From a virus: DNA of 59,321 bases. Shown here in pieces: positions 5,326 through 37,305 of the stretch (position 1 is the first letter of the stretch; each line of letters begins with the position of its first letter). The stretch is taken from positions 1 to 59,321 of IMG/VR virus record IMGVR_UViG_3300022719_000028; one strand, given 5' to 3'. A program made the position numbers and the translations under genes. The notes beneath the pieces were generated by a model. The model ran no database searches and was not told the origin of the DNA. It saw only the letters and a program-made list of their open reading frames with translations.

Positions 5326-5336
5326 AAGGCGGAAAA

Positions 5337-6005: not shown

Positions 6006-6087
6006 GAACGCGAAATTTCGATTCTGACGGCTTCGGGCGGTTCGGCGTAGGTTGAACCGTTTCGGGCCGTCAAAACGGCACGGCGCA

Positions 6088-6120
6088 ACGCTCCGGGATT
6101 TCTCCGGGGCGTTTTTCTTT
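6088..6120 (+). terminator. intrinsic terminator
   Basis: ACGCTCCGG 6088-6096 / CCGGGGCGT 6104-6112 (one G-U pair), then TTTTTCTTT. Confidence 0.65.
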
Positions 6121-7437: not shown

Positions 7438-7976
7438 TCTTGCCGGAAGGGTTTGAATACACCGAAGCCGGGCATGTTGTAACGGAAATCGGTTTGCATA
7501 AACTTCAACTTGCGGCGAAAGCCGGCGTTGCAAGGCAAATCGAATCATATGCCAGAAAATCAAAACCGGCATACGGGGCCGATCATTCTTTGAATTGGCA
7601 AATCGCAATTGAAGGCGTTATTGGCGAATGGATTATTTCAAGAATGTTGGGCATCGAATGGCATGGCAAAGGCGTTCTTGGCGGCCCGGATGTTGGCGAA
7701 GATCTGGAAGTGAGAACATCAGCATACAACAACGGCCGTTTGATACTTCACCCGTTCGACGGGAAACGCGGCGATGATCCGAACCGAATCTTTTGGCTTG
7801 TTACAGGATCGCAACAAACATATTTTGTTCGGGGATGGATTCGGGCGGCTGACGGTCAACGTCAAGAATTCTGGACGAATCCAACGGGCAAAAAGGGGCG
7901 CGATGCGTTCTTTGTTCCGCAAAGCGAATTAAACTTGCCGGGAACTTTTGAGAGGGAAAAAGCAAATGCAATATGA
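7419..7976 (+). CDS. PD-(D/E)XK nuclease-like protein
   Basis: GGPDVGEDLEVRTS resembles the D...ExK/R core of restriction-fold/VRR-NUC nucleases. Overlaps the methyltransferase by 19 nt. Start is ambiguous (7359 or 7419). Confidence 0.4.
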   Translation: MGQRNLILPEGFEYTEAGHVVTEIGLHKLQLAAKAGVARQIESYARKSKPAYGADHSLNWQIAIEGVIGEWIISRMLGIEWHGKGVLGGPDVGEDLEVRTSAYNNGRLILHPFDGKRGDDPNRIFWLVTGSQQTYFVRGWIRAADGQRQEFWTNPTGKKGRDAFFVPQSELNLPGTFEREKANAI

Positions 7977-8148
7977 TCCGAATGAACCGTATCCGATGGA
8001 AGTGATTGATGCGGCCGTGAAACTTCGAAATGAAAAAGGTTGGGGCATGAAAAAGATTGCCCGCAAACTCAAAGTTGATGAAAGCAAATTGCGGCATGAT
8101 TATATGGAATTATTGATTCGCCAACGGGCGGCGGTTCAAGAAAAATGA
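7966..8148 (+). CDS. small helix-turn-helix protein
   Basis: GWGMKKIARKLKVDESKLRH resembles a resolvase/Hin-type HTH. Start 7948 or 7966. Confidence 0.45.
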   Translation: MQYDPNEPYPMEVIDAAVKLRNEKGWGMKKIARKLKVDESKLRHDYMELLIRQRAAVQEK

Positions 8149-8174
8149 TTTGAACTTTTTGAAAGGCTGACACA

Positions 8175-9023
8175 ATGGCAAATCCTCTAAAATGGCACGG
8201 CGGCAAAACGTATCTTGCCGGCGAAATCATCAAACGCTTTCCCGCGCATACGCGCTACGTTGAACCTTACTTCGGCGGCGGGGCCGTTCTCTTTGCAAAG
8301 CCGTTCGAAGGCGTTGCCGAGTATGCGAACGATCTGGATCTTGAGTTGATGAATTTTTGGCGCGTTCTGCAAAACGAATTTCTTGGGCCGTTGTTGATTC
8401 GGCGGTTGAACCTTGAACCGTTTTCAAAGCCGGGGTTCACGGTTGCAAATGCAAAATCGCAATATGCGGATCCGAATTCTTCGCCGGTTTTACGGGCGGC
8501 GAATTTCTTTGTTCGATACCGTCAAAGCCGGCAAGGCTTGGGGAAGGATTTCGCAACGCCAACATCGCGAACGCGGCGCGGAATGAACGAACAAGTTTCG
8601 GCATGGCTTTCGGCGGTTGATGGATTACCGGAAGCGGCGGAACGATTGCGACGGGTTGAAGTTCGCAACGAATCCGCGATTGATTGCATTACCGAACTCG
8701 ATTCGCCGGAAGCTTTGTTCTATCTGGATCCGCCATATCTTCCAGAAACTCGGAAAGCAAAAAAGACATACGGCGAATTTGAAGCAACGGTTGAACATCA
8801 TGAATTGCTTTTGAAAACGTTGGCGGGTATCAAAGGCAAATTCATTCTTTCCGGTTATCCTTCAACGATGTATCGAAAAGCGGCGAAGGCGAACAAATGG
8901 AAATGCGACAAAATAGAAATCGACAACAAAGCAAGTTCGGCGAAGAAAAAAGAAATCAAAACCGAATGCCTTTGGTTTAATTTCAGCCGGCGGGAATTCG
9001 GGAAGGGATTGAAAGCGGAATGA
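8175..9023 (+). CDS. Dam-type (D12 class) N6-adenine DNA methyltransferase
   Basis: KWHGGKTYLAGEI..YVEPYFGGGAVLF (SAM pocket) and FYLDPPY (DPPY at 8727-8738). RBS GAAAGGCTGACACA-ATG. Confidence 0.9.
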   Translation: MANPLKWHGGKTYLAGEIIKRFPAHTRYVEPYFGGGAVLFAKPFEGVAEYANDLDLELMNFWRVLQNEFLGPLLIRRLNLEPFSKPGFTVANAKSQYADPNSSPVLRAANFFVRYRQSRQGLGKDFATPTSRTRRGMNEQVSAWLSAVDGLPEAAERLRRVEVRNESAIDCITELDSPEALFYLDPPYLPETRKAKKTYGEFEATVEHHELLLKTLAGIKGKFILSGYPSTMYRKAAKANKWKCDKIEIDNKASSAKKKEIKTECLWFNFSRREFGKGLKAE

Positions 9024-9778
9024 GAATTTTGATAGTCGGCGCGCCGAAAACAGGAACAACGGCATTGATGGATTCAATCGCCGGAAGTTTAGGTTTCAAA
9101 TGGGAGTTCGAAAAAACCGATTGCGGTTCGGATAATCTTGTGAGAAAAATTCTATTTCATCAATTTGCGGATCGGATGATTGATGAATTTGATCGAATCA
9201 TTTTCACTTGCCGGGATCCTCGCGATAGGTTGATTTCGGCGTTTGTTTATTTCTTGGCGTTCGGGCCGGCAAACATGAAGGGGCCGTTCATCGCGCTTGA
9301 TCTTTTGCAGCGGAAAGAATTCGAACGCGAACTTCCGTTTCATATTTTGTTGCGGGAAGCTTCGCGGCATTGCTTTTTTCATTACTCGTTTTCTGAATTT
9401 GTTGATCGGGATTCGCTGGCGATGATTCGCCGGCATCGCGACAATCCGAAAGTTTGCGTTTTTCATTATCACGATTTAATCAAAACAAACTTTGAAACCG
9501 TTTCGGAGTTGATCGGAAAAAAGATCAAACCGTTTTCCGGGCATTGGTCGCCTATTGCATACCGGGCCGGCGGTTGTGAGTATTGGCGGCGATGGTTCAC
9601 GGAATCGGATCTTGATTATTTTACCGATATCGCGAACGATTGGGCGCGAACTTTTGGATTCGGTTTGGATTGGCGGCTTTCGGATGAAGGCGCGAACGCG
9701 GCGGAAGGATCTGAATGGTTCAAGATCGGCGCGAACAAATGGCGAAAGATAAACGGCGTTCCCGAACTGGAATTTTGA
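9020..9778 (+). CDS. sulfotransferase-family protein
   Basis: GAPKTGTTAL (5'-PSB loop, PKxGTT) and FTCRDPRDRLISAF (3'-PB, RDPxDRxxS). Confidence 0.7.
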   Translation: MRILIVGAPKTGTTALMDSIAGSLGFKWEFEKTDCGSDNLVRKILFHQFADRMIDEFDRIIFTCRDPRDRLISAFVYFLAFGPANMKGPFIALDLLQRKEFERELPFHILLREASRHCFFHYSFSEFVDRDSLAMIRRHRDNPKVCVFHYHDLIKTNFETVSELIGKKIKPFSGHWSPIAYRAGGCEYWRRWFTESDLDYFTDIANDWARTFGFGLDWRLSDEGANAAEGSEWFKIGANKWRKINGVPELEF

Positions 9779-9779
9779 A

Positions 9780-10568
9780 ATGAAAAAAGCGGCTTGCGTT
9801 TTCACGATTGTTCAAGATGAAAGTTTTTTCTTGCGGCTTTGGTTTGAACATTATCTTCAACATTTCGACGCAACCGATCTTTTTGTTATCGATCATAATT
9901 CCATCGAACCGGTTCAAGTTCCGGAAGGCGTGAACGTTATTCGGCTGGAATATGAAACATCGTGGGCGCATGATTGGCTTTGCGAGACGGTTGAAAACTT
10001 CAATCGTTTTTTGCTTGGAACTTATGAAACCGTTTTGTTCGCGGAAGCCGATGAATACTATATCGCGAATCCTCTTTTGACTTCGGCCGCAAAGCTTCCG
10101 GAAGTATTGAACGCGGAACATATCGCAAAGAAACCGGTTTTGCGTTCTCAGGGATTTGATATCGTTCAGATGGTCAACGAAGATCCGCCGGTCGATCCTT
10201 CAAAGCCGATGTTGGGGCAACGTCAATTGATGTTCGCTTCCGATGCCTATTGTAAGCCGTGCGCGGTTCGCGTTCCCGTTCGATGGAATTACGGCTTTCA
10301 TACTTTGAGATCTCGCGATATGGTTACGTTCGTTCCCGAATTGGTTCTTTGTCATTTTCATTACTTTGATGAAGACATTTTGAACGAACGGAACGCATTG
10401 CGGCTTGAACGCAAATGGTGCGAAAAAGCTTTATACGATAACCTCGGAAAACAAAACCGAAACAGTTGCACGGAAGTTCGGAAGGAATTTTTGGAATGGA
10501 AAAAAAAGCGAACAATCATGCGGCCGATTCCGGACGAATGGAAATCGTTGATTCCCGCGTTGCGATAG
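9780..10568 (+). CDS. GT-A glycosyltransferase (Glyco_tranf_2_4 / GT92-like)
   Basis: ACVFTIVQDESFFLRLWFEHYLQHFDATDLFVIDHNS and EADEYY motifs. Confidence 0.5.
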   Translation: MKKAACVFTIVQDESFFLRLWFEHYLQHFDATDLFVIDHNSIEPVQVPEGVNVIRLEYETSWAHDWLCETVENFNRFLLGTYETVLFAEADEYYIANPLLTSAAKLPEVLNAEHIAKKPVLRSQGFDIVQMVNEDPPVDPSKPMLGQRQLMFASDAYCKPCAVRVPVRWNYGFHTLRSRDMVTFVPELVLCHFHYFDEDILNERNALRLERKWCEKALYDNLGKQNRNSCTEVRKEFLEWKKKRTIMRPIPDEWKSLIPALR

Positions 10569-11566
10569 TTGTTCCGTCGAATCGCGTTGATGAAATGTGG
10601 AAGTTCAAAAGCGAATGGGAAAGCGAACACGCAACAATCTTTTGCGTTTGGGATAAGGAAACCAAGCCGGGCCGGTTTACAGATTCGAAAACATTCCGTT
10701 CAATTTCGCATCGCGAAATCAAAGAACAATACGGCGAAGTTTCAAAAATCTTTTCAACCAATGACGGCGGGATCCGCATCGCTGGATTCTTGGAAGCGGC
10801 GCGGGCCGGGGCCGAAGTGATTATTGTTTTAGATGATGATACGCGGCCGCATGGTAGCGTTGCCGATTTCATTGAAGGGCATTGCCAAAACTTACGCGGC
10901 GGATTCCCGCGTTGGATTTCGAGCGCTCCGGGAATTCATCAACGCGGCTTGCCGTATCTTCCGGATATAAAAATTCAAAGGCCCGTTCTTTTGTCCGTTG
11001 GATTATGGCAAGGCGTTCCGGATGTTGACACAATCGAAACGTTCGCGGCATTGCGCCGGAAAATATCGCTTCATTACATACCACCAAAGGGAACGCGCAT
11101 CGTTCCGGCCGGGCAACTGGTAACGCTTTCGGGCATGAACTTCGCTTTCCCTGTTGAGTTTCTACCGGCCGCGTTTTGGCCGAAGCAATCGTTGGAAACG
11201 TTTCAAAGATTTGACGACATTTGGGGCGGCTTCTCAATGCAACTAATCATTGAACAGTTCGGCGGAATTGTGACAACGGGCGAACCGTTCGTTTTGCACG
11301 AACGAAGATCCAGCGCATACGCGAACTTGAAAAAAGAAACGCGCGGCATCATTGCGCATGATGAAGTTTCGCAATTGATCGACGGTTTCGAGAGTCAAGA
11401 AACATCGATTGCAAGAACGGCGTTCGCGTTCGTTGAACATCTGAGAAGAAAAGCCGGAATGATGGATTCGGATGTTGCCGAATACGTCAAGCAATGGGCA
11501 ACGGACTTTGAAGCATGGCTTGAACTATGCAAAAAACTTTTCCAAAAACTTTCCAAAAAAGAATGA
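10538..11566 (+). CDS. GT75 / reversibly-glycosylated-polypeptide (RGP)-like protein
   Basis: VAIVVPSNRVDEMWKFKSEWESEH..IFCVWD and IIVLDDDTRP resemble the RGP/UDP-arabinopyranose-mutase family N-terminus and DDD motif. Start 10496 or 10538. Confidence 0.5.
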   Translation: MEIVDSRVAIVVPSNRVDEMWKFKSEWESEHATIFCVWDKETKPGRFTDSKTFRSISHREIKEQYGEVSKIFSTNDGGIRIAGFLEAARAGAEVIIVLDDDTRPHGSVADFIEGHCQNLRGGFPRWISSAPGIHQRGLPYLPDIKIQRPVLLSVGLWQGVPDVDTIETFAALRRKISLHYIPPKGTRIVPAGQLVTLSGMNFAFPVEFLPAAFWPKQSLETFQRFDDIWGGFSMQLIIEQFGGIVTTGEPFVLHERRSSAYANLKKETRGIIAHDEVSQLIDGFESQETSIARTAFAFVEHLRRKAGMMDSDVAEYVKQWATDFEAWLELCKKLFQKLSKKE

Positions 11567-11649
11567 TATCACATTGACGGGCGGCCGATAAGTGATATCA
11601 TACAGTTGTTGAAGGCAAGGCAACAAAACAAAACGAAAGGCACGGAATT
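11563..11649 (+). promoter_or_regulatory. early promoter/operator/leader cassette, copy 3
   Basis: TGATATCA 11564-11571. TTGACG 11574-11579. TATCAT 11596-11601. Hairpin TTGTTG/CAACAA 11606-11626 with the same AAGGCAAGG loop. GAAAGGCACGGAAT before ATG 11650. Confidence 0.7.
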
Positions 11650-11877
11650 ATGTTTTATATGGTTGGCGGCAAAGTTCCCGTTCAGTACGAAACCGGATAC
11701 AAAGGTTTTCAATTCAAAGTTCTTGAAGTTGTTACAACCGAATCGGCTTCACTGGAAGGAATGAAAGCATACGTTGAACTCGGATACAAAGGCGTTTGCC
11801 GACGCATCGCAACCGCAAACGAATTCTTCGAATTCAGCGAAAACGGCGGCGAAAACTTAACTTTCCAAAAAGTTTGA
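11650..11877 (+). CDS. hypothetical early protein (75 aa)
   Basis: Sits between cassette promoters 3 and 4. Canonical RBS. Confidence 0.6.
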   Translation: MFYMVGGKVPVQYETGYKGFQFKVLEVVTTESASLEGMKAYVELGYKGVCRRIATANEFFEFSENGGENLTFQKV

Positions 11878-16203: not shown

Positions 16204-17211
16204 ATGATTGATTCAAAGATTGCAGTTGAAGGGCCGAAGGCGCATTCTCCCGAATGGTACGATATCCGGTTTTTCGATCCGGATCGGGAAAGGCCGGTTG
16301 TGATAACGGCAAGCGAATCGGCGGCGGCTTGCGGCGCTTCGCCGTATCAAACCGCGCTTGAACTCTACATGACGAAGCGGCGCGAAATGGAAGCTTGGGA
16401 ACCGGACGACGAACAAAAAGAGCGCATGCGATTCGGTCAACGGATGGAATCGGTTGTTATCGACGAATACAAAAATCAAAACGATTGCGAAGTTGAAACC
16501 GATTTGCCGTTGTATCTTTCAAATCGATTTGAATTCTTGGGCGCAACTCCGGATGCGTTCGCGCGGAAAGATGAAGACGTTTGGGAACTGGAAGCCAAAA
16601 ACTCGAATTGGCGAATGTTCGATCAAAGCGGCGAAGATGAAAACAAATACGGCGAAGCCGGAACGGATCAAGTTCCCGCGTATATGATGTTTCAAGCGCA
16701 ACAACAAATGATCGTTCTTGGTTTGAACCGGGTTGATTTTCCCGTTCTGCAAAACGGGAATCGAATGTTGATTTACCGGGTTGAAGCTTATGAAGCTTTG
16801 CAAAATAAAATCATTGAATGCGGGAAAGAACTTGCCGAACGCATCATCAACGGCGAACCGCCGGATCCGGATTACACGCATGACGGAACCGCGAAATTGC
16901 TTCAAGAAATGTACGGCGTTTCGGTCGGAACCGTTATTGAACTCGATGTTGATGCCGAAGAACTTTGGTTTCGTCAAATTGAGATTGCCGAGAAGATCAA
17001 AGAACTTGAAGCGGAAAAAAAGGCAATCAAAAACAAGATGTTGGATATGATGGGCGATGCTGAGATTGCCCGTTTTCCGGGGCGAAATTTCAAATTGAAG
17101 CGAACCGCTATTGATGATTCGTATTGGACGGAACAAGATGTTCAAAAGATTGTGATCGGAGATATAAAGCGGCGCGGACATATCCGCATCACAAAATCAA
17201 AAGACAAATAA
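16204..17211 (+). CDS. YqaJ / lambda-Exo-type recombination exonuclease
   Basis: ITASESAAACGASPYQTALELYMTKR (YqaJ N-terminal signature). GATPDAF ... WELEAKNS (PD-ExK). Confidence 0.8.
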   Translation: MIDSKIAVEGPKAHSPEWYDIRFFDPDRERPVVITASESAAACGASPYQTALELYMTKRREMEAWEPDDEQKERMRFGQRMESVVIDEYKNQNDCEVETDLPLYLSNRFEFLGATPDAFARKDEDVWELEAKNSNWRMFDQSGEDENKYGEAGTDQVPAYMMFQAQQQMIVLGLNRVDFPVLQNGNRMLIYRVEAYEALQNKIIECGKELAERIINGEPPDPDYTHDGTAKLLQEMYGVSVGTVIELDVDAEELWFRQIEIAEKIKELEAEKKAIKNKMLDMMGDAEIARFPGRNFKLKRTAIDDSYWTEQDVQKIVIGDIKRRGHIRITKSKDK

Positions 17212-17302: not shown

Positions 17303-18454
17303 ATGGCAAGCGGAAATCAAATGCTGACACAAGATCAAATCGACGCGCAACGCGGAATGAGTTTGCGCAAATGGTTGAACAAGCCGGAAGTTCTTGAAGA
17401 TCTCGAATCTTCATTGACGGGTTGGATTTCAGCCGAACAATTCAAATCGCAAATTTTAGTTGATATCAATTCGGAAACTCTCGCGCGTTGTTCTCCCGAA
17501 TCAAAGTTTGCGGCGGTTCTCAAATGCGCAACGCTTCAACTGTTACCGTCATTGAATCACGTTGCGTTGATTCCTTCCAAAGTTCGCGAAGACGGCGTTG
17601 TTGTCAAAACCGAAGTTCGCGTTACGGTTCAATGGCAAGGCTATCAAGCTTTGATGCTTCGGCATCCGGACGTTAAAGATGTGAACGCTTACTTGGTTCA
17701 CGAATCGGATTCGTACAAATACGATCAATTAAATAAACGAATCGTTGAACATTCTTTTGATCCGTTGGATCCGCAACGAACTTTCAACAACTTCAATGAC
17801 GTTCGCGGCGGGTATGTAGTTGTTGAGTACAAAGATCCGAACCGGGCTGATAAACATCATTTCGTTACATGCGAAACAATCCGCAAGGCGCGGGGATGCG
17901 CAGAAACCGGCACGATTTGGGAAGCATGGTTTTTCGAAATGTGTATGAAAACTCTCTATCGCAACGCATACGCGCGGCGGGTTGTTCCGATGGATCCAAT
18001 GCTTGCGCGACGAATGGAAGAATTGAACCGGCATGAAGACGAACAACTCGGCAACGATCCGAAGCGAATCATTGATTCAACCGCAACCGCGATTGATCGA
18101 AAGCCGGAAAAACAGAAACCGCAAAGCCGGGCCGCGCAATTGGCTTCGGACGATTCGCCGGAATCTTCGCCGGTGGAACCGGAACCGAAAGCAACGGAAC
18201 CGGAACCGATGAACGAACCGGAACCGGAACCGGAACTTCCAGAAACGCCAACGGATGAACCAAGGCGCGAAACATCGGACGAACGCGGGCATTTCCAACG
18301 GCTGAAAGAAAAGGCCGAATGCGCAACAACCGTGAAAGAAATCGATTCGCTGAATGATGAAGCCGGCGAATTGGTTTCAAGCGGGGAACTGACGAACGGC
18401 GAATTCGGAATTCTGGTACAGTTGTTTTCGGAACTTGCAATGAAACTCGATTGA
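17303..18454 (+). CDS. recT: RecT-family single-strand annealing protein with Pro/Glu-rich C-terminal region
   Basis: SPESKFAAVLKCATLQLLPSLNHVALIP ... VQWQGYQALMLRH ... TLYRNAYARR. Adjacent to the YqaJ exonuclease. Confidence 0.8.
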   Translation: MASGNQMLTQDQIDAQRGMSLRKWLNKPEVLEDLESSLTGWISAEQFKSQILVDINSETLARCSPESKFAAVLKCATLQLLPSLNHVALIPSKVREDGVVVKTEVRVTVQWQGYQALMLRHPDVKDVNAYLVHESDSYKYDQLNKRIVEHSFDPLDPQRTFNNFNDVRGGYVVVEYKDPNRADKHHFVTCETIRKARGCAETGTIWEAWFFEMCMKTLYRNAYARRVVPMDPMLARRMEELNRHEDEQLGNDPKRIIDSTATAIDRKPEKQKPQSRAAQLASDDSPESSPVEPEPKATEPEPMNEPEPEPELPETPTDEPRRETSDERGHFQRLKEKAECATTVKEIDSLNDEAGELVSSGELTNGEFGILVQLFSELAMKLD

Positions 18455-20173: not shown

Positions 20174-20269
20174 GATTTCGCACGGAAGCGAATTAGGTTG
20201 TTTGCGATAGGCAACCGGGCCGACATGATGCCGGCTTTTTATTTTAGGCTGACAACGAAAGGCGCGGAA

Positions 20270-20806
20270 ATGTTCTTTGGCATCGATCCTTCATTGACTG
20301 GAACGGCAATTTGTTTCGGCAACGATCCGGAACCGGAAAAACATGAAATGAAAGTTTTCGGCAATGAATCACGCGGAAAGTTATTGCCGGGGCGAATTGA
20401 ACGGGTTGTTGATCTGGCGTTGATGGTTCAATCTGAAATCGCGAGAAACGCGGAAGGCGACGATTCGATTTTTATTGAAGCGTATTCCTACGGATCGAAA
20501 AACAACAGTGAGAAGCTTGCCGAGTACGGCGGAATTCTCCGGATGTTGTTGTTGGAAATGACACCGAAAATTTACGAAGTAGCGCCAACAACTCTAAAGA
20601 AATTCGCAACGGGCAAGGGCAAGGGCAAAAAACATTTGGTTGCGGGTTCGGTCGGCAAGCGGTTCGGGCTGGCGTTTGAAACGGACGATGAAACCGATGC
20701 CTTTTGCCTTTGGCGGTTCGGCATGGTTTTCGGCGAAGCCGTTCCGGATGCGCGGGCATACGAAAAAGAAACTGTTGAATCATTCAAGAAAAGGTTGAAT
20801 TCGTGA
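20270..20806 (+). CDS. RuvC-like Holliday-junction resolvase
   Basis: MFFGIDPSLTGTAI (first catalytic Asp), IFIEAYS (Glu), ETDDETDAFCL (C-terminal Asp pair). GAAAGGCGCGGAA-ATG RBS. Confidence 0.75.
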   Translation: MFFGIDPSLTGTAICFGNDPEPEKHEMKVFGNESRGKLLPGRIERVVDLALMVQSEIARNAEGDDSIFIEAYSYGSKNNSEKLAEYGGILRMLLLEMTPKIYEVAPTTLKKFATGKGKGKKHLVAGSVGKRFGLAFETDDETDAFCLWRFGMVFGEAVPDARAYEKETVESFKKRLNS

Positions 20807-21093: not shown

Positions 21094-21737
21094 TGACGGG
21101 TACAATCGATCAAATCATTTTGGGCCGATACTTTCGCGGGTTGGCAGAATCGGAAGCAATGCGGGCAATCGTTCAAGAGGGGTTGAAACCAAGCCGGTTG
21201 CGGGTTGAAGGCGATAGGGTCTTTTATGTTATGCCGGATCAACTCGAAGAAATCGAACTTTGCCGTTGCCGTTCGGCTTATGAAGCGGCAACCGTTGCGA
21301 ACGAAATCAACGATAAGCTTGAACTTCAACAGGCGCTTCAAACGTTGACGGCCGAACTTGCCGGTTTGCTTCGGGCGTATTCGGCGGCCGTTTATTACTT
21401 CGCGCATCACGAAACCGATTTGAGCATTGACGAACAACAACAGTTGAACGCGGTTGCGGATCGCATGGAACTTTGTTGCGAATACGGCGATGATCTTTTC
21501 AACGAAATCGTTTTGCCGTTCTTGCATCAAAACAAATTTTCGGTTGCGAACATCACATTGAACCGCGAAAAGACGCGAACGGTCAAAATGTTGAACGCGG
21601 CCGAAAAACTTTTATACGAATTAAATCTTTCCGTTGCGGCCGGGCAAGAGTTCTCGGAAGGAATCGTTGACGCGGCGGCCGAACTTGAACAATCAATGAA
21701 TCTTTCGGACGAAGGGCAAGCCGATGAAAATGAATGA
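21093..21737 (+). CDS. hypothetical protein (214 aa)
   Basis: GTG 21093 preceded by AAGGAAAG. An alternative ATG at 21072 would overlap the previous gene. Confidence 0.45.
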   Translation: MTGTIDQIILGRYFRGLAESEAMRAIVQEGLKPSRLRVEGDRVFYVMPDQLEEIELCRCRSAYEAATVANEINDKLELQQALQTLTAELAGLLRAYSAAVYYFAHHETDLSIDEQQQLNAVADRMELCCEYGDDLFNEIVLPFLHQNKFSVANITLNREKTRTVKMLNAAEKLLYELNLSVAAGQEFSEGIVDAAAELEQSMNLSDEGQADENE

Positions 21738-21894
21738 ATTCGTTACTATGGTTGCGGATATGTTGGAAACGCAACAACGATATTTCAAAACGCGAAGCCG
21801 GGAAGTTCTGCAAGAGTCGAAGCGAAAAGAAGCCGAAGTTCGCAAGGCAATCAAAGAATATAACGGCGGGCAACAATCGCTTTTTGATGACTGA
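21730..21894 (+). CDS. small hypothetical protein (54 aa), not in the supplied ORF track
   Basis: MNEFVTMVADMLETQQRYFKTRSREVLQESKRKEAEVRKAIKEYNGGQQSLFDD. More protein-like than the overlapping 21734-21949 frame. Start overlaps the upstream stop. Confidence 0.45.
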   Translation: MNEFVTMVADMLETQQRYFKTRSREVLQESKRKEAEVRKAIKEYNGGQQSLFDD

Positions 21895-21993
21895 CGGGAG
21901 AAATCCCCTTTCGCGAAACATTCGAAAAGATTACCTTTCGGAACTATGATTTCGGTAACGGAACCGAAACGTTTTTCCCGAAAGGTTTTTTTC

Positions 21994-22290
21994 ATGGATG
22001 GAATACTTGCACAAGCGGCACAAGCGGCGGAACCGGAAGGCTTCGGATTCGCCGAAATCTCTATGATCATCGGCGCGTTCGCCGGCTTGGTTTCGATTCT
22101 TGGCGTTGGATTGGCTGGCGTTTGGCGGCTGGCAACGATCAACACAAAAATTGAAACGCTCAAATCCGAAGATATACCGTTCATCAAAAGCGAACTTTCA
22201 ACGCTTCGGACGGATCATAAAACGCAAACGAATTTGCTTCACGAAAAGATCAACGAAAACTCGGAACGCATTACGCGGCTTGAAAAATGA
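21994..22290 (+). CDS. membrane protein with coiled-coil tail (holin/spanin-like candidate)
   Basis: One TM segment ISMIIGAFAGLVSILGVGLAGVW. GAAAGG RBS 8 nt before ATG 21994. Confidence 0.5.
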   Translation: MDGILAQAAQAAEPEGFGFAEISMIIGAFAGLVSILGVGLAGVWRLATINTKIETLKSEDIPFIKSELSTLRTDHKTQTNLLHEKINENSERITRLEK

Positions 22291-22904
22291 ACGGCTTGAA
22301 TAATTACATTACGCCGGAAGCGGCGGCCGAAAGAATTCAAAACGGTTGGTTGATTCAATACCGGGGCGCGGCGGGTATCTTTTCAAATGCGATTCGATGG
22401 GCGGCAAGCGGGCAACCGCATACGCATTCCGCAATGGCGCATGTTTTCGAGAACGGTCAAAAGAATATCAACGTTTTGGAAATGCGAGAATTCCGGGGCG
22501 GGCGTTCGCTTCCGTTTGAATATCACGTTGAAAAATACGCCGGGCGAATGGATGTTTTTTCGATCAACGTTGAACGCTTTCCGGAATACAATGCCGAACA
22601 AGCCGTTGCCGAAATGCGGCATCTTGTGACAAAAGAATACGGATATGCGGGCGCGTTCGGTTTGGGGCTTCGGCATTTGCCGTTCATATGGCGATTGTTT
22701 CCGGTCGATGTTACGGACGTTCTAGATCCGGATGAAGCAACAAACGTTCGGCCGTTTTGTTCGCATGCGATAGCGCTGGCGCTTCAACTTGGCGGCATGG
22801 TGGATCCGGTTTTGAGGCTTCCGGCATACTTGGTTGAACCGGCGCATTTGACGAACTCGCATCTTTTTAATTACGAATTCTCAATTCAAAAAAAGAGGAA
22901 ATGA
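22287..22904 (+). CDS. permuted papain-fold (YiiX/C92, NlpC/P60-related) peptidase; endolysin candidate
   Basis: The order His (HTHSAMAH) before Cys (RPFCSHAIALAL) is typical of the permuted family. Lies in the lysis-like neighbourhood. Confidence 0.45.
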   Translation: MNGLNNYITPEAAAERIQNGWLIQYRGAAGIFSNAIRWAASGQPHTHSAMAHVFENGQKNINVLEMREFRGGRSLPFEYHVEKYAGRMDVFSINVERFPEYNAEQAVAEMRHLVTKEYGYAGAFGLGLRHLPFIWRLFPVDVTDVLDPDEATNVRPFCSHAIALALQLGGMVDPVLRLPAYLVEPAHLTNSHLFNYEFSIQKKRK

Positions 22905-22908
22905 AGAA

Positions 22909-23775
22909 ATGGCGCAATCGGATTACGGAAGCAAATTGGAAAAAGAAGCGGTTCGGAATTTTTTGAAGAAATGGGCAAAGCGAATCGGCGTTTTGATTGC
23001 CGGGGCGATTGCGGGCGGCGGGGCCGTTGAAGTGAGTCAAAGCGGTTTTGATCCGGGGCAATACTTCCAAGCGGCCGAAGCCGAAGCCGAACCGGTTGAA
23101 GAATGGGCGCAACCACAAGCGATGATTGCGGGGCCGTCTGAAATTGACGCGGGCCGGTTGTTGACTTTGAGCGCCGAAGATTCAATTGGCGATTCGGTTC
23201 AATGGGATCCGATCAACTTGCCGAATCCAACGGATTTCAAAGTTTGCGGGCGGGAATTGATTTGCGCGATTGATAGGCCGGGAACATACGAATTCAGGCT
23301 TTGGGCGTCGAATTGCAAAGATGGGAAGCCGATCTTTGATAAGGCAACGCATACGGTTCGCGTTGGCGGCAACGAACCGGACGAACCAACGAAACCGGAT
23401 GAACCAACGAAGCCGGAACCGGATGAACCGGACGAACCAACGAAGCCGGAACCGCCGGCCCGCTATGGCTTGGCGGAATACGTTCGCGGGTTGGCTGAAA
23501 CGGTCGATAAAAAAGAACGCGGGCGGGCGGGCGAAGTTGCCGATGTTTTTGAATTGGCGGCCGATGGGAACCATTCGACACCGCAAGCGCTCGTTTCCGC
23601 AACGCTGGAAGGCTTGCGTTCAACTCTCGGAAGCGATGTTGATGAATGGCGGGATTGGTACGCGGCAACGGCGAAGCGATTGGATGAACTGGAAGCGGCC
23701 GGAAAAATGGTTTCAATGAATGACTTCCGGCAAGCTTGGAAAGAAATTGCAAACGGTTTGAATTCTCTTAACTGA
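22909..23775 (+). CDS. membrane-anchored protein with Ig/PKD-like segment and EPDEPTKP repeats
   Basis: TM IGVLIAGAIAGGGAV. The repeat EPDEPTKPDEPTKPEPDEPDEPTKPEPP is encoded around 23380-23460. Confidence 0.5.
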   Translation: MAQSDYGSKLEKEAVRNFLKKWAKRIGVLIAGAIAGGGAVEVSQSGFDPGQYFQAAEAEAEPVEEWAQPQAMIAGPSEIDAGRLLTLSAEDSIGDSVQWDPINLPNPTDFKVCGRELICAIDRPGTYEFRLWASNCKDGKPIFDKATHTVRVGGNEPDEPTKPDEPTKPEPDEPDEPTKPEPPARYGLAEYVRGLAETVDKKERGRAGEVADVFELAADGNHSTPQALVSATLEGLRSTLGSDVDEWRDWYAATAKRLDELEAAGKMVSMNDFRQAWKEIANGLNSLN

Positions 23776-23786
23776 AAGGCGCGATT

Positions 23787-24683
23787 GTGTCAGTTGAGCA
23801 AATCATCAAAGAAACGGATGCCGAAGTTTCGCTTTTTGATATGGTTCGGTTTTTATACCGATATGGATATTTCAACGGAATCATTGACGGTTTGAAAAGC
23901 AAATCGTTTGATGATGTTGTGAAGTTCGTTCGGAAGCAAATGCCCGAATTCAAAGAGGGAATCAAACGCTTTCAATCGTTCTACAATTTGACGGTTGATG
24001 CCGATCCGGGGCCGCAAACGCAACGGGCGATGATGGAACCGCGATGCGGTTGCCCGGATATCATACCGGAAGGCGCGGAAGCGGCGGGCCGTTGCCGTTG
24101 GCCGATTGAAAAGATGCAAGGCGTTTCGTATTCCTGCAACTTTGATGAACTCAATATTTCAACGGCCGAAGCAACCAAGATCTTTCAAGATGCGGCGGAA
24201 GCTTGGAACAAAGTTTGTAACATTCAATTGCGCTACGTCAATCAATACGGAAGCGCGAACATCAATGCGGAAACCGCGCGGATTGATTCACGCGGCGGAA
24301 CGTTGGCTTGGTCATATTTGCCTTGTCAGAACTCGGCAACGCAACGGCTTCAACAACGATATGACACGCGGGAAAATTGGAACTATCGGTTTTTGTTGGC
24401 CGTTGCCATTCACGAACTAGGGCATGCGCTCGGCTGGAATCATGCGAACACGCGGGCAAGTATTCTTTGGCCGTCATATCAAAGCAACATTTGGGAACCG
24501 CAAAAATTTGATATCGCGCGGGCCGAAGATACTTACGGCAAGCCGATCATTCCGGAACCGAAGCCGGATCCGAAACCGGATGATCCGAACGTTCCAAGCG
24601 CGGAAGGCATCATCAACTTTAGAATCAACGGGCGAACGTTCCCGATGAAACTTGTTTCTGTTACTGATAAAGGGAGTCTTTGA
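23787..24683 (+). CDS. matrixin (M10, MMP-like) zinc metalloprotease with PG-binding-like prodomain and cysteine switch
   Basis: GTG start after GAAAGGCGCGATT. PGPQTQRAMMEPRCGCPD (cysteine switch, 24039-24059). HELGHALGWNH (HExxHxxGxxH, 24411-24443). SILWPSY at the Met-turn position. Confidence 0.8.
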   Translation: MSVEQIIKETDAEVSLFDMVRFLYRYGYFNGIIDGLKSKSFDDVVKFVRKQMPEFKEGIKRFQSFYNLTVDADPGPQTQRAMMEPRCGCPDIIPEGAEAAGRCRWPIEKMQGVSYSCNFDELNISTAEATKIFQDAAEAWNKVCNIQLRYVNQYGSANINAETARIDSRGGTLAWSYLPCQNSATQRLQQRYDTRENWNYRFLLAVAIHELGHALGWNHANTRASILWPSYQSNIWEPQKFDIARAEDTYGKPIIPEPKPDPKPDDPNVPSAEGIINFRINGRTFPMKLVSVTDKGSL

Positions 24684-24684
24684 A

Positions 24685-25497
24685 ATGCGATGGTTTTACT
24701 ATCATTCGAAATTTGTTTTGGCGGCATCGATCTTTTTGGTTTGTTCCGTTGCATCGGCAACGAACTTCGGAACGCTTCAAGATGTGGACTTCGGCGAATT
24801 GAGTTCGCCGGCAATGGCGAACGTTGACTTCTCGGAACTTTCGTTTGAAGATCTTTCGGCCGATGCGCAACCGACACCGCATGCGGAAGTTCATCGAATT
24901 CTTTCCGAACTGAGATTGAAGCCGGGCGAAACGTTCGTTGATTACGGATGCGGATACGATGCCCGGTTTTGTATCGCGGCGGCTTCGCTTTATGGCGTTG
25001 ACGCAATCGGCGTTGAAATCGATCCGGGCCGGGCGGAATCGGCAAAGCGGCGGGTTGCGGCGCTTGGCTTGTCCGATAAGGTTACGATCATTGAAGGCGA
25101 TGCAACGGCGGTTGATGTGGATGCCGATGTTGGCGTTGCGTATTTATGGCCGGAAACTTTGAAGGCGTTACGGCCGAAACTCGAAAGGCTGGATCGGTTC
25201 GCTTCGGTCAATCATCGCGTTCCCGGTTTGGAAATGAAACCGAACGGCGATGCGTTCGTTTGGACGAAGCCGGAAGATCCGCCGGAACTGCAAACGGTTT
25301 CGATTCCGTTTCCAGAATACGCAAGTTATTCCGCGCCGGTTTGCAACAAAGCGAATTGTTCGATGTGCAATAAAATCCGGGCGAACAACGCGGCAAGGCA
25401 ACGGGCAACCGAACCGGAAAAACAGAAATCCGGCGGGCGTTGGGTGAACTACTATTGCAACGGCCGCGTTTGCCGGCGGGCTTGGGTGGCAAATTAG
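24685..25497 (+). CDS. class I SAM-dependent methyltransferase with N-terminal signal/anchor and Cys-rich C-terminus
   Basis: MRWFYYHSKFVLAASIFLVCSVASA hydrophobic N-terminus. FVDYGCGYDARF..GVEID..IIEGDA SAM motifs. C-terminal CNKANCSMCNK ... YYCNGRVCRR. Confidence 0.6.
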   Translation: MRWFYYHSKFVLAASIFLVCSVASATNFGTLQDVDFGELSSPAMANVDFSELSFEDLSADAQPTPHAEVHRILSELRLKPGETFVDYGCGYDARFCIAAASLYGVDAIGVEIDPGRAESAKRRVAALGLSDKVTIIEGDATAVDVDADVGVAYLWPETLKALRPKLERLDRFASVNHRVPGLEMKPNGDAFVWTKPEDPPELQTVSIPFPEYASYSAPVCNKANCSMCNKIRANNAARQRATEPEKQKSGGRWVNYYCNGRVCRRAWVAN

Positions 25498-25550
25498 ATA
25501 TTGCGAACTCATTCAAGAAACGTTTGAATGAATCAACCGGAAGTTGAACG

Positions 25551-25578
25551 GGCGGCCCGGAAACGGGCCGTTTTTTAT
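25551..25578 (+). terminator. intrinsic terminator
   Basis: CGGCCCG 25551-25557, GAAA loop, CGGGCCG 25562-25568, then TTTTTTATTT. Confidence 0.75.
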
Positions 25579-25602
25579 TTACCTTTTGAAAGGCGCAAGA
25601 AA

Positions 25603-26040
25603 ATGAACAGGGAATTTGAATTGAACCGATTGGAACTGAAACAAAACTCGAATCCGGTTGTTTCCGAATTCGCGAAACGCATTGATGACAATCTTGCGGC
25701 CGTTGATTACTCCGGGCCGTCAATGTTGTTCGGTCAAGATCTCATTGCGTTGATGATGGAACTTTTGCTTTCGGTTTTGGAAGGCTGCATTTCGCAACGC
25801 TCGAAACCGGAAATGATCGAATCAATGAAAGCGCCTTCAATCTGGCAACGGATGTTGTTACGGCGAAGAATGAAGCGCGAATTGTACGGCGGAAATAAAC
25901 GCTTTGAATCATTGGACGGCGAAGGCGTTTATCAGGCTTTCATGAAGACAACGGCGGAAGCCGAACCGAACGAACTTTCAGAATTGATTGATTACGTTGA
26001 AGGCGAATCAATTCCGGATGTTGATTTTGGTTCGCTTTGA
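25603..26040 (+). CDS. hypothetical protein (145 aa)
   Basis: GAAAGGCGCAAGAAA-ATG. The longer ORF from 25528 would read through the terminator. Confidence 0.55.
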   Translation: MNREFELNRLELKQNSNPVVSEFAKRIDDNLAAVDYSGPSMLFGQDLIALMMELLLSVLEGCISQRSKPEMIESMKAPSIWQRMLLRRRMKRELYGGNKRFESLDGEGVYQAFMKTTAEAEPNELSELIDYVEGESIPDVDFGSL

Positions 26041-26316: not shown

Positions 26317-26684
26317 ACGAACCGAATAACGAAATCGGTTTGCCGAACGAAATGCGGGAACGCATCGAAGCGCAAGGCATGGAAGTTCCGGCGGGCGTTG
26401 ATTTGTTTCAACTCGCGCGGAAGATCAACAAAGGCGAAGTTGATCCGGGCAACGCTTGCATCCGTTTTGACGATGAATCGCTTGGTCGGCATTCATACGA
26501 AATAACGGTTCAAGCTTCGCGAAAAGCGCCGGGGCCGGGCGTTCGGCCGGATTACCGATTCCCACCGGGAAGCGCGGCGGAATATATCAATCAAACGAAC
26601 AAACAGTTCGGCGGCGTTCTACCGGGTTCACCCTCGGAAAAAGTGATTTCAGAAAAAACAAAAAAAGTTTGCAGAAAACATTGA
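26304..26684 (+). CDS. hypothetical protein (126 aa)
   Basis: Overlaps the upstream gene by 13 nt. Its stop lies inside the -35 of cassette 6. Confidence 0.5.
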   Translation: MQGMNEPNNEIGLPNEMRERIEAQGMEVPAGVDLFQLARKINKGEVDPGNACIRFDDESLGRHSYEITVQASRKAPGPGVRPDYRFPPGSAAEYINQTNKQFGGVLPGSPSEKVISEKTKKVCRKH

Positions 26685-26768
26685 CGGACGGCCGATAAGT
26701 GATATCATATAAACATCGACGGAAGGCAAGGCCGTCAAGAACGAAACTCAAAACAAAGGCACGGAATC
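26681..26768 (+). promoter_or_regulatory. early promoter/leader cassette, copy 6
   Basis: TTGACG 26681-26686. TATCAT 26703-26708 (TGATATCA 26700-26707). Hairpin GACGG/CCGTC 26718-26736 with loop AAGGCAAGG. The distal dyad is absent. Confidence 0.65.
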
Positions 26769-26975: not shown

Positions 26976-27009
26976 GCGGGCCGTCAAGCCGGCGGCCCGT
27001 TTTTTTTTC
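26976..27009 (+). terminator. intrinsic terminator
   Basis: GGGCCG 26978-26983 / CGGCCC 26993-26998, then T9. Near-identical to 2885-2916. Confidence 0.75.
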
Positions 27010-27272: not shown

Positions 27273-27378
27273 GTGAATTCACATTGACGGCGGGCCGATA
27301 AGTGATATCATTAAAAATGTAAGGCGAACGGCAAGGCGATTCGCCAACAATCAAAACTTTTTTGAAAGGCACGGAACT
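27273..27378 (+). promoter_or_regulatory. early promoter/operator/leader cassette, copy 7
   Basis: TGAATTCA 27274-27281. TTGACG 27284-27289. TATCAT 27306-27311. Hairpin GGCGAA/TTCGCC 27323-27345 with loop CGGCAAGGCGA. Confidence 0.7.
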
Positions 27379-34557: not shown

Positions 34558-34782
34558 ATGAATGTTGTTGCCGTTCTGGTTTGGAACTTGGCAACCAAGA
34601 TTTCAACCGCGTTGTTCGGCAACATTGACGGCTTCGCATTATTCGCTTCGAATGTAATGGTTGAAGTTGCGATTCTGGCAATGCTTCTCGGCGTATCATT
34701 AACCGGGTTGGTTATGGTGTTGTTCGTTCGCGAGTTCCGAAAAGAATTAAATAAATCAAAGGCGCAAAAATCCGATGAATGA
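34558..34782 (+). CDS. small membrane protein (2 TM)
   Basis: Hydrophobic segments VVAVLVWNL.. and VAILAMLLGVSLTGLVMVLFV. The frame is open and hydrophobic upstream to 34489 without a canonical start. Confidence 0.45.
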   Translation: MNVVAVLVWNLATKISTALFGNIDGFALFASNVMVEVAILAMLLGVSLTGLVMVLFVREFRKELNKSKAQKSDE

Positions 34783-35529: not shown

Positions 35530-37305
35530 ATGGCAACGGATTCGCTTGAAGCTTTACAACAACCGTTTTCGGCTGACATTCTTACGGCGATAAGGTTAGC
35601 GCCGGCAATCCAACAATGCCGGGAAGGAAAGCCGTTGCCGTTGATCCGGGAACTATGGCCGAAGATTCGCTTGGACGATTTTCAAGTTGATGCGATTGAA
35701 TCGCTTTTCAATCCGAAGATTCGCGAAGTTTTCATCAAAGGCAATACGGGTTGCGGGAAAACCGCGATTGCCGGAATTGCCGTTTGTCTTTACTTCCAAG
35801 TTTTTGATGATGCCCGGATTGTTTTGACTCGCGACAAATTCGATACGGCGAAGAAAATTCTTTTCGGCGAATGCGTTTCATGGTGGAAGCGAATGCGTTT
35901 CACGCTGACGGATGCCGTTGTTCTGGCGAATGAAATTTACGATCCGAACAACCGCGAAGGGCATTACGTTTTGATTGCAAATCCGAAAACGCCGGAAGGA
36001 TTTCAAGGCGTTCACTCTCCGCATGTTTTGCACGTTTACGATGAAGCAACGGCCGATGTTCTGCAACCGCGCTACAAACTCAGTTCAACGCAAGCAACTT
36101 CATTCTTGGCTATGGGGAATCCGCGCGTAACAAGCGGCGAATTTTACCGGGCATTTCCAAAGGGCCGGGAGAATGAAACGCATACGTTCAACGGGCCGAA
36201 CGGACGGCGGCGGCTGATTACCGTTGACGGCGAAGATTGCTTGAACGTTCGGAAGAAATGTTTGAAGAAATCGATTGCGCCGATGGGCGGCATTATTATC
36301 GACGGGCGGGAATACAAAGCCGGCGAAGATATCGAACCGGAAGATTTCAAAAAGGCATCGCCGATCATTCCGGGGCAAACTTGTTTTGATGAATATATTG
36401 CTTTGCTGGCGAATCCGGATCCTGATTTCGTTGCCTGTTATGCGCATGGGAAGTTTCCGGAAGCCGATACCGAAGTTCAACTTTTCGTTCGCAAATGGAT
36501 CTCGCATGTTCAACAACAACATTCGCGATTCATGCGGCTTTTGGAACGGGCCGAAAAAGATCATACAAACGTTTTTAATTGGTTGTTGAATAAGCGGTTG
36601 CCTGTTGAGGCGTTCGGGCTGGACGTTGCGGCAAGCGAAGTCAAAGGCGATTGGAGCGTTTTAACGGCCGGCGGCCGGCATGGCGTTCGTAAGCAACATC
36701 GAACGCAAAAGGCGAACGTGATGCGAACAACGGCTTGGACAATCAAAACCATTCGCGACGAATACGGCATTGATATCACGGACGGCAACGAACCGATTTG
36801 CATTGACTACGGCGGCGGATACGGGCGGGGCGTTGGCGATAGGCTGGAAGAATTGGGCGCGTTCGTTATTAAGTTCGTTCCGAATGCGACAAGCGAAATC
36901 AATCCGAAGAAATATAAGAATTTGAGAGTTGAGGCATACGCCGAACTCGCGAACCGGTTGGATCCGGATGCGATTCAAGCCGGCGAAGTTTCGGAAGAAT
37001 TGCTTGAACGGATCGATGCGGAAAAAGATGATTCAAGAATTTTGCGGATGCCTGATTTCCTATTGCCGGAATCAAATCGATTGTTCGAAGATCTTGCCGT
37101 TCTCGAAAAGATCTATGATTCCGATGCCTTTAAGTTTAATCTGACACCGAAGCGAACCGCGCCGGGGCATGAAGAAAAGATTGAATCAATCGAAAAGCGG
37201 CTTGGGCGTTCTCCGGATGACGGGGATTCGGTTTCTTATATGTTTCATGCGTTACCGCATATCAAAGATTCGCTTTCGGAATGGTTGGATGCCGGGGCGT
37301 TTTAA
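35530..37305 (+). CDS. terL: terminase large subunit
   Basis: Walker A IKGNTGCGKTAI. Walker B VLHVYDEAT. Size 591 aa. C-terminal nuclease-like half. Confidence 0.85.
   Translation: MATDSLEALQQPFSADILTAIRLAPAIQQCREGKPLPLIRELWPKIRLDDFQVDAIESLFNPKIREVFIKGNTGCGKTAIAGIAVCLYFQVFDDARIVLTRDKFDTAKKILFGECVSWWKRMRFTLTDAVVLANEIYDPNNREGHYVLIANPKTPEGFQGVHSPHVLHVYDEATADVLQPRYKLSSTQATSFLAMGNPRVTSGEFYRAFPKGRENETHTFNGPNGRRRLITVDGEDCLNVRKKCLKKSIAPMGGIIIDGREYKAGEDIEPEDFKKASPIIPGQTCFDEYIALLANPDPDFVACYAHGKFPEADTEVQLFVRKWISHVQQQHSRFMRLLERAEKDHTNVFNWLLNKRLPVEAFGLDVAASEVKGDWSVLTAGGRHGVRKQHRTQKANVMRTTAWTIKTIRDEYGIDITDGNEPICIDYGGGYGRGVGDRLEELGAFVIKFVPNATSEINPKKYKNLRVEAYAELANRLDPDAIQAGEVSEELLERIDAEKDDSRILRMPDFLLPESNRLFEDLAVLEKIYDSDAFKFNLTPKRTAPGHEEKIESIEKRLGRSPDDGDSVSYMFHALPHIKDSLSEWLDAGAF

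Follow-up and report, generated by a model that had tools for sequence, protein, structure and literature searches.

Can a tailed phage encode a complete matrix metalloproteinase (MMP) zymogen, and if so what would it use such an enzyme for? Both questions are raised by one gene at positions 23787 to 24683 of the virus record IMGVR_UViG_3300022719_000028, of which the whole stretch of 59,321 nucleotides, hereafter the window, was analysed. The gene encodes a zinc endopeptidase, here called the protease, and we hold with high confidence that this is a cysteine-switch matrixin zymogen of the M10A-like kind. For its function, a scenario in which it acts on the host envelope in association with lysis is, taken as a whole, about evenly poised between being right and being wrong.

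The protease gene and its motifs

The open reading frame (ORF) begins at a GTG codon with AAAGG placed 8–12 nucleotides upstream, and its parts are arranged as follows.

23787..24683, +, gene for the proMMP-like zinc endopeptidase (leaderless zymogen, 298 residues), from the ORF, Pfam, the proMMP-1 alignment, AlphaFold2 and Foldseek
23823..24038, +, helical prodomain, PG_binding_1-like, about residues 13–84, from model helices, Pfam and the MMP prodomain alignment
24039..24059, +, cysteine-switch motif PRCGCPD, residues 85–91, with the switch residue Cys87, from coordinates and conservation among relatives
24087..24542, +, catalytic matrixin domain, about residues 101–252, from Pfam M10, the 1su3 alignment and column statistics
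24411..24443, +, catalytic zinc motif HELGHALGWNH, residues 209–219 (H209, E210, H213, H219), from coordinates and conservation
24459..24479, +, Met-turn equivalent SILWPSY, residues 225–231, from the proMMP-1 alignment
24543..24662, +, Pro-rich linker (residues 253–271) and then a C-terminal beta-hairpin tail (residues 274–292; 24606–24662), from model strands and the family alignment

A preliminary description of this DNA, made from its letters, had reported the ORF, its motifs and the numbering of the switch residue as Cys87, and all of these are present at 23787–24683. Viewed as sequence features they are far in excess of chance. The profile search that the same description had proposed places both of its named families above their Pfam cut-offs: Peptidase_M10 (PF00413) matches residues 112–248 over profile positions 6–156 of 159 (E=7.4e-15, scoring 55.6 bits where the cut-off is 24), and PG_binding_1 (PF01471) matches residues 54–82 (E=1.7e-7, scoring 31.7 bits where the cut-off is 23). 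The best sequence match in the PDB is full-length human proMMP-1 (1su3, E=8.6e-15), and one alignment running from residue 54 to residue 256 sets the PRCGCPD of the protease upon the PRCGVPD of the human enzyme, with the segment of residues 61–91, which ends in the switch motif, reading RFQSFYNLTVDADPGPQTQRAMMEPRCGCPD. Identity to MMPs of the proMMP type is only some 20–25%.

Predicted structure

The AlphaFold2 model, built on 29 homologs, has a mean pLDDT (predicted local distance difference test score) of 86 and a pTM (predicted template modelling score) of 0.79. Its layout is of four N-terminal helices (16–25, 41–50, 52–65 and 76–82), the switch segment, an alpha/beta catalytic domain of the MMP type, the Pro-rich linker and the C-terminal beta-hairpin, the strands of which are at 275–280 and 283–288. 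When the model was compared with the PDB by Foldseek the top matches were all zymogens, namely proMMP-1, -3, -10, -9 and -7, with target-normalised template modelling (TM) scores of 0.75–0.79 over about 250 columns, and so the prodomain and the catalytic domain superpose jointly. On the proMMP-3, -9 and -10 zymogens the superposition covers both domains with a root-mean-square deviation of 3.3–4.0 Å, and mature MMP catalytic domains, that of karilysin included, rank below the zymogens. The structural modelling thus bears out the earlier suggestion of a proMMP architecture of prodomain, switch and zinc site, as do the Pfam scores, the proMMP-1 alignment and the conservation set out next.

A large family with a conserved switch

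A word-indexed search found 29 relatives of the protease. An exhaustive profile search over family clusters formed at 50% identity returned 1,913 cluster representatives when the limit was E<=1e-30 and 9,999 when it was E<=1e-10; the best 150 of them span the whole profile, their median length being 294 residues. In an alignment of 167 family members the four residues of the catalytic zinc motif, His209, Glu210, His213 and His219, are each present in all 167, and Cys87 is found in 165, both exceptions being N-terminally truncated proteins. Around the switch, Arg86 and Asp91 are each kept in 160 members and Trp105 in 163. The Met-turn residue is Met in 148 and Leu in 19, Leu being the state in the clade of the protease. 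At the position of MMP His183 a Trp is found in 148 of the 167, and at that of MMP His196 an Arg or Lys in 110. From these counts the cysteine switch and the loss of the second zinc site are therefore, at the level of sequence, both defining features of the family.

Two pairs of Cys columns add a further family-specific element. Positions C103 and C180 are both Cys in 55 members and neither is Cys in 110 (two discordant), and positions C109 and C184 are both Cys in 13 and neither in 153 (one discordant). Both pairs join the segment following the switch to the loop that follows strand 4, and such alternative but equivalent covarying pairs imply a structural disulfide, predicted here as C103–C180, and with it a probable workplace beyond the cytoplasm.

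The C-terminal beta-hairpin tail, which has the look of a docking element, is kept family-wide, even in a member (P0018) where an additional domain of some 100 residues has been inserted ahead of it. An N-terminal hydrophobic leader is missing from 142 of the best 150 representatives. A minority of the representatives (P0038, P0046, P0053, P0081, P0162 and P0185) are much longer, at 500–1,214 residues, with signal-peptide-like N-termini and two to four tandem proMMP units, each bearing a switch; they are probably relatives of the phage family that cells secrete as multi-protease proteins.

Departures from animal MMPs

The claim that the gene carries the full latency mechanism of eukaryotic-type matrixins went too far, given that the protease has no signal peptide, has three of the four structural-zinc ligands replaced and has a Leu at the Met-turn. 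Its N-terminus, MSVEQIIKETDAEVSLFDMV, shows neither a signal peptide nor a hydrophobic core, the top 12-residue Kyte-Doolittle mean over the first 50 or so residues being 1.08. The structural-zinc ligands of MMP-1, H168, D170, H183 and H196, align with N160, E162, W175 and R191, all three His residues thus being replaced, and the S-loop is eight residues shorter than that of proMMP-1. The DxxGGxLA ... D193 ... E196 motif is retained, and its residues we take, from what is known of MMP-1, to be a calcium site: MMP-1 D175, G176, G178 ... D198 and E201 correspond to D167, G170, G171, D193 and E196 of the protease, which are conserved in 144, 91, 136, 144 and 142 of the 167 members respectively. 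At the Met-turn the Met of proMMP-1 aligns with Leu227 and not with Trp228, the Pro and the Tyr being retained; Met-to-Leu mutants of metzincins keep activity. A hemopexin domain is absent from the protease, the Pro-rich linker and the short beta-hairpin tail standing in its place.

A conserved module of neighbouring genes

The genes around the protease were compared by an all-against-all comparison of the ORFs of 16 protease loci. It shows the protease within a conserved module of several genes, whose partners are exported, Cys-rich or of redox type, a feature overlooked in the preliminary description. In the window the genes concerned are these.

21946..22290, +, TM114, one transmembrane segment and then a coiled-coil-like tail, from the hydrophobic segment at residues 32–65
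22287..22904, +, p205, leaderless protein of permuted papain fold (Peptidase_C92 or YiiX-like, NlpC/P60 superfamily), from AlphaFold2 and Foldseek
22909..23775, +, p288, signal-anchored partner directly upstream of the protease, from co-occurrence
24685..25497, +, MT270, N-terminal signal or anchor, SAM (S-adenosylmethionine)-methyltransferase-like core and Cys-rich C-terminus, from Pfam and NCBIfam
25528..26040, +, p170, the partner found with the protease at the most loci, one Cys being invariant, from the locus comparison

The protein p288 is composed of an N-terminal hydrophobic anchor, in agreement with the earlier description of this neighbour as membrane-anchored, a middle domain rich in beta structure, which that description had put down as Ig-like, a Pro-rich linker and, at the C-terminus, a helical domain that is conserved, and it has no Pfam, PHROG or NCBIfam match. 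Its family occurs at 7 of the 16 loci and is directly upstream of the protease in six of them, with the p288 stop overlapping the protease start in L004, L009 and L020. Two further loci, L007 and L008, were at one point counted as p288 members, and these links vanished under low-complexity filtering, having been driven by the Pro-rich linker. The p170 family is found at 8 of the 16 loci, always 0.6–3 kb downstream of the protease and in both sub-architectures; its links to L007 and L012 appear when the limits are set to E<=1e-3 and a length of at least 50, and their alignment seems a true one. The conserved part of p170 begins near an internal Met at 25603, ahead of which lies a terminator-like hairpin (25550–25573).

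For p205 the model has a pLDDT of 70 and its only Foldseek matches at E<1e-3 are 3KW0 (TM score 0.66–0.72) and E. coli YiiX (2IF6), and so the permuted papain fold proposed earlier for this neighbour is upheld. The invariant residues are H45, H47, S48 ... C158 and S159, with His upstream of Cys. The Pfam C92 profile itself does not match p205, and the phrog_1128 label of "enoyl-CoA hydratase-like" was overruled by the fold result. On its modelled fold p205 is a candidate wall- or lipid-acting hydrolase; a Peptidase_C92 gene that Pfam does recognise stands two genes upstream of the protease at L012, a distant locus. Profile searches with p205 and p170 against the PDB returned nothing. The stop of TM114 overlaps the start of p205, and TM114 is conserved in close relatives only. 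It had been called holin-like, a label that does not hold up, since it has no family match and a better holin look-alike lies at 34558–34782.

Directly downstream, MT270 matches Pfam CMAS (3.4e-9) and Methyltransf_25, and its Cys-rich C-terminus (CNKANCSMCNK ... YYCNGRVCRR) is conserved in L001. Export would be strange for a methyltransferase, given that SAM is found in the cytoplasm. In other lineages the slot filled by MT270 is held by an exported CxxC (thioredoxin-like) protein, the f3 family, which occurs at 6 of the 16 loci and directly downstream of the protease in five.

L004:2608-3462, f3 family member
L009:6863-7684, f3 family member
L020:5780-6568, f3 family member
L021:5713-6297, f3 family member
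L010:1936-2499, f3 family member
L019:7448-8203, f3 family member

These proteins have a signal peptide, beta-strand and then CxxC, the thioredoxin-like CxxC module being present in most and absent from the shorter L010 protein, and a conserved W..G...H...S..EL..LH...HE domain is common to all, as is a "CP" motif at the C-terminus, which in three of them reads GCPxGxCP. The f3 family has no Pfam or NCBIfam assignment, and the matches of its profile in the PDB, all sub-threshold, are almost all of thioredoxin fold (best E 0.056). At five of the 16 loci the gene directly downstream of the protease encodes a large exported protein of 420–620 residues, and in three of these five a signal-peptide-bearing CxxCH protein follows, with a Cytochrome_CBB3 match of 8.7e-7 in L012.

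L007:10769-11428, CxxCH haem-binding-motif protein (Pfam Cytochrome_CBB3 or Cytochrom_C), two genes downstream of the protease
L012:11112-11849, the same, two genes downstream of the protease
L014:7079-7816, the same, two genes downstream of the protease

A c-type cytochrome-like gene on a phage is unusual, and two of these three loci are large phage contigs. Overall, most partners in the module bear signal peptides or anchors, and they are usually directly adjacent to the protease.

In the window the genes from 21734 to 25497 overlap or sit no more than 11 nucleotides apart, and no promoter-like site was found within this cluster. Strong terminator-like hairpins occur at 25550–25573 and 26976–27000. 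Two identical promoter-like sites (TTGACG, 16 nucleotides, TATCAT, with a TG extension) at 26681–26708 and 27284–27311, both on the plus strand and 600 nucleotides apart, flank the second of these hairpins. In blastn comparison with the related contig L022, the sequence around 26680–26766 recurs near 4170–4300, 11530–11650 and 43445–43570, and these stretches may be repeated regulatory elements of the phage. Searches with PADLOC gave no match for the protease, p288, p170 or p205, and MT270 matched only the generic methyltransferase region of mad2 (3e-12).

The phage genome and the carriers of the family

Every gene of the window, the genome of a tailed phage, is on the same strand, and the landmarks are as follows.

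16204-17211, +, RecE-like
17303-18454, +, RecT
20198-20806, +, RuvC
35530-37305, +, large terminase
39485-40993, +, portal
41318-43225, +, Mu-F-like
46453-48156, +, HK97-type capsid
53293-56784, +, tape measure

In L022 the tape-measure gene is followed by one gene of 906 residues and then by homologs of the first genes of the window, and the window from 56781 to its end encodes the first 728 residues of that 906-residue gene at 83% identity. Since L022 closes through one tail gene, the window represents an entire phage genome, some 59.2 kb long and closing into a circle, in which the contig break falls inside the tail gene of about 906 residues (1–321 and 56781–59321). The ends overlap: positions 38–137 repeat the final 100 bases, and the opening 29 bases are identical to the closing 29, an arrangement that points to a short repeat, some 108 nucleotides long, within the tail gene.

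That the protease family is large and, among the loci sampled, mostly phage-borne was likewise missed in the preliminary description. At least 14 of the 16 compared loci are on virus-like contigs, with portal and Mu-F genes at L004, a giant viral RNA polymerase fusion at L006 and an SU10-type capsid gene at L011, a contig that had been binned as "Nitrososphaerota". L007 and L012 are on contigs of 118–138 kb, and four of the loci are IMG/VR contigs. The closest relative, at 77% identity, comes from marine or estuarine samples, where 42 index blocks contain it. Among isolated phages tblastn over 50,697 deposited phage genomes gave no match for the window protein or for two of its distant relatives, P0019 and P0015, and no PHROG matches the protease, p288, p170 or TM114; the nearest isolates to the capsid of the window are at no more than 26% identity.

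Some other contents of the genome deserve mention. Sugar and modification genes occupy 321–11566 on the plus strand (a GNAT plus GT2 (glycosyltransferase family 2) fusion, a GT2, a sulfotransferase and a reversibly glycosylated polypeptide (RGP)-like gene at 10466–11566, Pfam RGP 1.6e-20), and DUF1643, MT-A70 and D12 DNA methyltransferases are also present, a modification gene set unusually rich for a siphovirus-like genome of 59 kb. A CsrA homolog (Pfam PF02599; L001:875-1078) lies upstream of the recombination genes in the phages whose protease is 77% related.

Related systems

With the animal and plant proMMPs (MEROPS M10A; 1SU3, proMMP-3 1SLM, proMMP-9) the protease shares the three-helix PG_binding_1-like prodomain, the PRCGxPD switch, the HExxHxxGxxH zinc site and a loop of the Met-turn type in which the Pro and Tyr are kept. 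The proMMPs have a signal peptide, the His ligands of the structural zinc, the Met of the Met-turn and hemopexin, all of which the protease does without, whereas the covarying Cys pair is specific to its own family and the gene is encoded by a phage. Matrixin zymogens of phages seem not to have been described before, as had been suspected from the sequence, since literature searches found none.

Among prokaryote-associated enzymes the matrixin catalytic domain is found in karilysin of Tannerella forsythia, the bacterial MMP known in most detail, structures of which (2xs3, 2xs4, 4in9) are among the matches of the protease; karilysin retains the structural zinc site. It is secreted, with a signal peptide and a C-terminal domain for type IX secretion (T9SS), and its short profragment uses an aspartate switch and not a cysteine switch (PMC8259862). 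The closest functional precedent is Mtz of Listeria monocytogenes, a secreted metzincin of phage or mobile-element origin which cleaves its anchored partner Tim, a TIMP-like lipoprotein, the pair altering the cell wall, sensitising the cell to phage lysis and raising virion release (PMC8235301). The likeness lies in the pairing of a metzincin gene with that of an adjacent membrane-anchored partner, both on an element derived from a phage. By contrast Mtz has a Sec signal peptide, is reported with no cysteine-switch prodomain, and belongs to a Gram-positive chromosomal remnant under CI/Cro-like control. No similarity of Tim to p288, p170 or f3 was detected.

Matrixin catalytic domains are also encoded by insect viruses with double-stranded DNA (granuloviruses, ascoviruses, entomopoxviruses, iridoviruses and nudiviruses), and these appear in the BFVD as structural neighbours of the protease; they are mostly longer proteins of eukaryotic viruses and act on animal tissue. 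The baculovirus MMPs are not known to carry a cysteine switch. Nearer in carrier are A0A6J5RTD2 of an uncultured Caudovirales phage, a BFVD entry of 297 residues with an MMP-like fold that aligns over its full length (TM score 0.64), and the "Zn-dependent protease" of Lactobacillus phage 3-521, again a phage-encoded protein of MMP-like fold. Both are only 15–16% identical to the window protease and are unstudied. Bacterial MMPs are widespread, and a 2025 phylogeny argues that MMPs arose in bacteria, with no mention there of phages or prodomains (PMC12587646).

The lysis question

Over every ORF of the window, Pfam and PHROGs searches (in the structural region, among the matches listed) found no member of the lysozyme, amidase, transglycosylase, CHAP, M15, M23, holin or spanin families. 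A conventional endolysin located outside the window was ruled out, given that L022 shows the genome closing through one tail gene. With a complete genome in which no endolysin, holin or spanin is recognisable, the cluster at 21.9–26 kb therefore becomes, by a weak argument from elimination, the best candidate for envelope-acting genes. The best holin look-alike, at 34558–34782 (+), is a protein of 74 residues with two transmembrane segments and a charged C-terminus rich in Lys and Glu; it is immediately followed by the small ORFs that lead up to the large terminase, with no endolysin-like gene adjacent. In lambda the order S-R-Rz-cos gives a comparable placement of the holin ahead of the terminase.

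The protease had been proposed as a lysis enzyme of endolysin type, and here the searches lend no help: its sole catalytic domain is the M10 matrixin, no known peptidoglycan-hydrolase domain was found in it, and it has no lysin-family match in Pfam or NCBIfam and no PHROG. An "M10 endolysin" is thus unproven and peptidoglycan an unlikely substrate. The adjacent C92 protein p205 is, going by its modelled fold, the better endolysin candidate. C92 falls in the NlpC/P60 superfamily, which includes wall peptidases; to our knowledge C92 itself has no proven muralytic role.

Proposed mechanism and its rivals

An envelope or lysis role of the protease is plausible by elimination and by analogy with the Listeria precedent, and might proceed along the following lines. 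Cys87 would cap the catalytic zinc as in the proMMPs, and so the protease would be inert while it accumulates in the reducing cytoplasm. It would reach the envelope or the exterior only upon a late membrane breach, by a holin or by lysis, and there the Cys103–Cys180 disulfide would form and the switch would open through thiol oxidation or through removal of the prodomain. The active protease would then cut protein rather than peptidoglycan, the substrates being host envelope proteins or the anchored partner p288, and the cleavage would weaken the envelope and so aid lysis or virion release. In doing this it would work within its module, together with p288, p170 and, elsewhere, the CxxC thioredoxin-like or the cytochrome-c-like protein.

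Several points weigh against this account. The contact of Cys87 with the catalytic zinc site comes from the zymogen superposition, and the envelope role of the family from sequence, model and precedent. A leaderless protease beside Sec-exported partners is a mismatch which the account leaves unexplained. The Leu at the Met-turn may reduce stability. The elimination argument is weak because Pfam and PHROG profiles can miss divergent endolysins, and the protease gene is 9 kb from the holin look-alike, between the recombination and the packaging genes. At one locus, L014, the protease lies among cellular-looking genes (a sulfatase, PQQ (pyrroloquinoline quinone) and a P-type ATPase). No host was adopted: a genome scan matched only two metagenome-assembled genomes, Emcibacter and Moraxellaceae, cluster names gave "Alphaproteobacteria" and "Nitrososphaerota", and these labels are mutually inconsistent and viral binning is unreliable.

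Other explanations differ in where the protease acts and on what. The main substrate could be its own partner p288, cut for instance in the Pro-rich linker, with the freed fragment serving as the envelope effector on the scheme of Mtz and Tim. The position of p288 directly upstream at six loci, with overlapping stop and start codons at three of them, fits this processing role, as does the finding that Mtz cleaves and releases the lipoprotein Tim, both being needed for sensitisation (PMC8235301). However, p288 is missing from 9 of the 16 loci where the protease persists with other partners, and has no detected similarity to TIMP or Tim, and so a mainly processing function seems unlikely. Were the protease instead a true endolysin, PG_binding_1 would be its wall-binding module, as is common and established in lysins, and the metzincin domain would cut peptide stems or cross-links. 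The domain match above the Pfam cut-off, a leaderless form like that of canonical endolysins and a complete genome with no other recognisable endolysin all speak for this, but the modelled prodomain packs on the catalytic cleft and the switch Cys is almost invariant, which points to an inhibitory prodomain, and p205 is the stronger candidate for the wall. One relative is on a viral contig binned to Nitrososphaerota, archaea without peptidoglycan, although that binning is unreliable. We know of no M10 enzyme that cuts peptidoglycan containing D-amino acids, which also counts against the endolysin, and little credence is given to it.

It is similarly very unlikely that the protease works inside the cell on cytoplasmic host proteins, in host takeover or counter-defence. 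The lack of a signal peptide would suit such a role, as would the position of the gene in the middle region, flanked by recombination genes and by DNA methyltransferases and apart from the late structural genes. Yet the covarying Cys pairs imply a disulfide that would be unusual in a cytoplasmic enzyme, a thiolate-zinc switch would stay shut in the reducing cytoplasm, the conserved neighbours are exported and in some lineages include one resembling a c-type cytochrome, and PADLOC turned up no tie to defence or anti-defence. It is also highly improbable that the gene is an auxiliary or passenger of no concern to lysis, from which the host or the released phage would profit in the environment by digesting extracellular protein, biofilm matrix or substrates derived from animals, or by destroying receptors on cell debris. 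For such a gene one can cite the link of the widespread bacterial MMPs to animal-derived substrates in marine metagenomes (PMC12587646), the marine or estuarine origin of the relatives and the one member (L014) in a cellular context. Against it, the gene is retained across many unrelated phage lineages with a fixed partner set in tight operons, and a leaderless protein cannot serve a living host cell.

The envelope-acting scenario can also be drawn more sharply, as a redox-gated proteolytic lysis system in which the switch is a compartment sensor and which would replace or complement a spanin or endolysin step in phages without recognisable lysis genes, a version that is improbable as it stands. 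Here the thiolate-zinc bond would hold the leaderless protease off in the reducing cytoplasm until the holin breach, after which the oxidising periplasm and the exported CxxC thioredoxin-like or c-type cytochrome-like partners would oxidise the switch Cys and form C103–C180. The active protease would then sever protein links of the envelope, for example the tethers from outer membrane to peptidoglycan or an S-layer.

Significance

Cysteine-switch latency with a PG-binding-like prodomain is usually seen as a hallmark of animal and plant MMPs. The protease family is thus a known kind of enzyme in an unexpected carrier and at an unexpected scale, with the complete zymogen design present in about 1,900 clusters that are, among the loci sampled, mostly on phage contigs, and it bears on the origin of MMPs and of their latency mechanism. 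As a minimal natural proMMP, with no hemopexin and, judged from its residues, no second zinc, the protease is suited to mechanistic work. If it is an aid to lysis, a proteolytic step would be added to what phages do in lysing their hosts, and with it an exit route for phages with no recognisable endolysins. If the switch does act as a redox gate, the latency design of the proMMPs would be ancient and widespread in phages, and phages would be a plausible reservoir or vector of the matrixin zymogen design that plants and animals came to use later.

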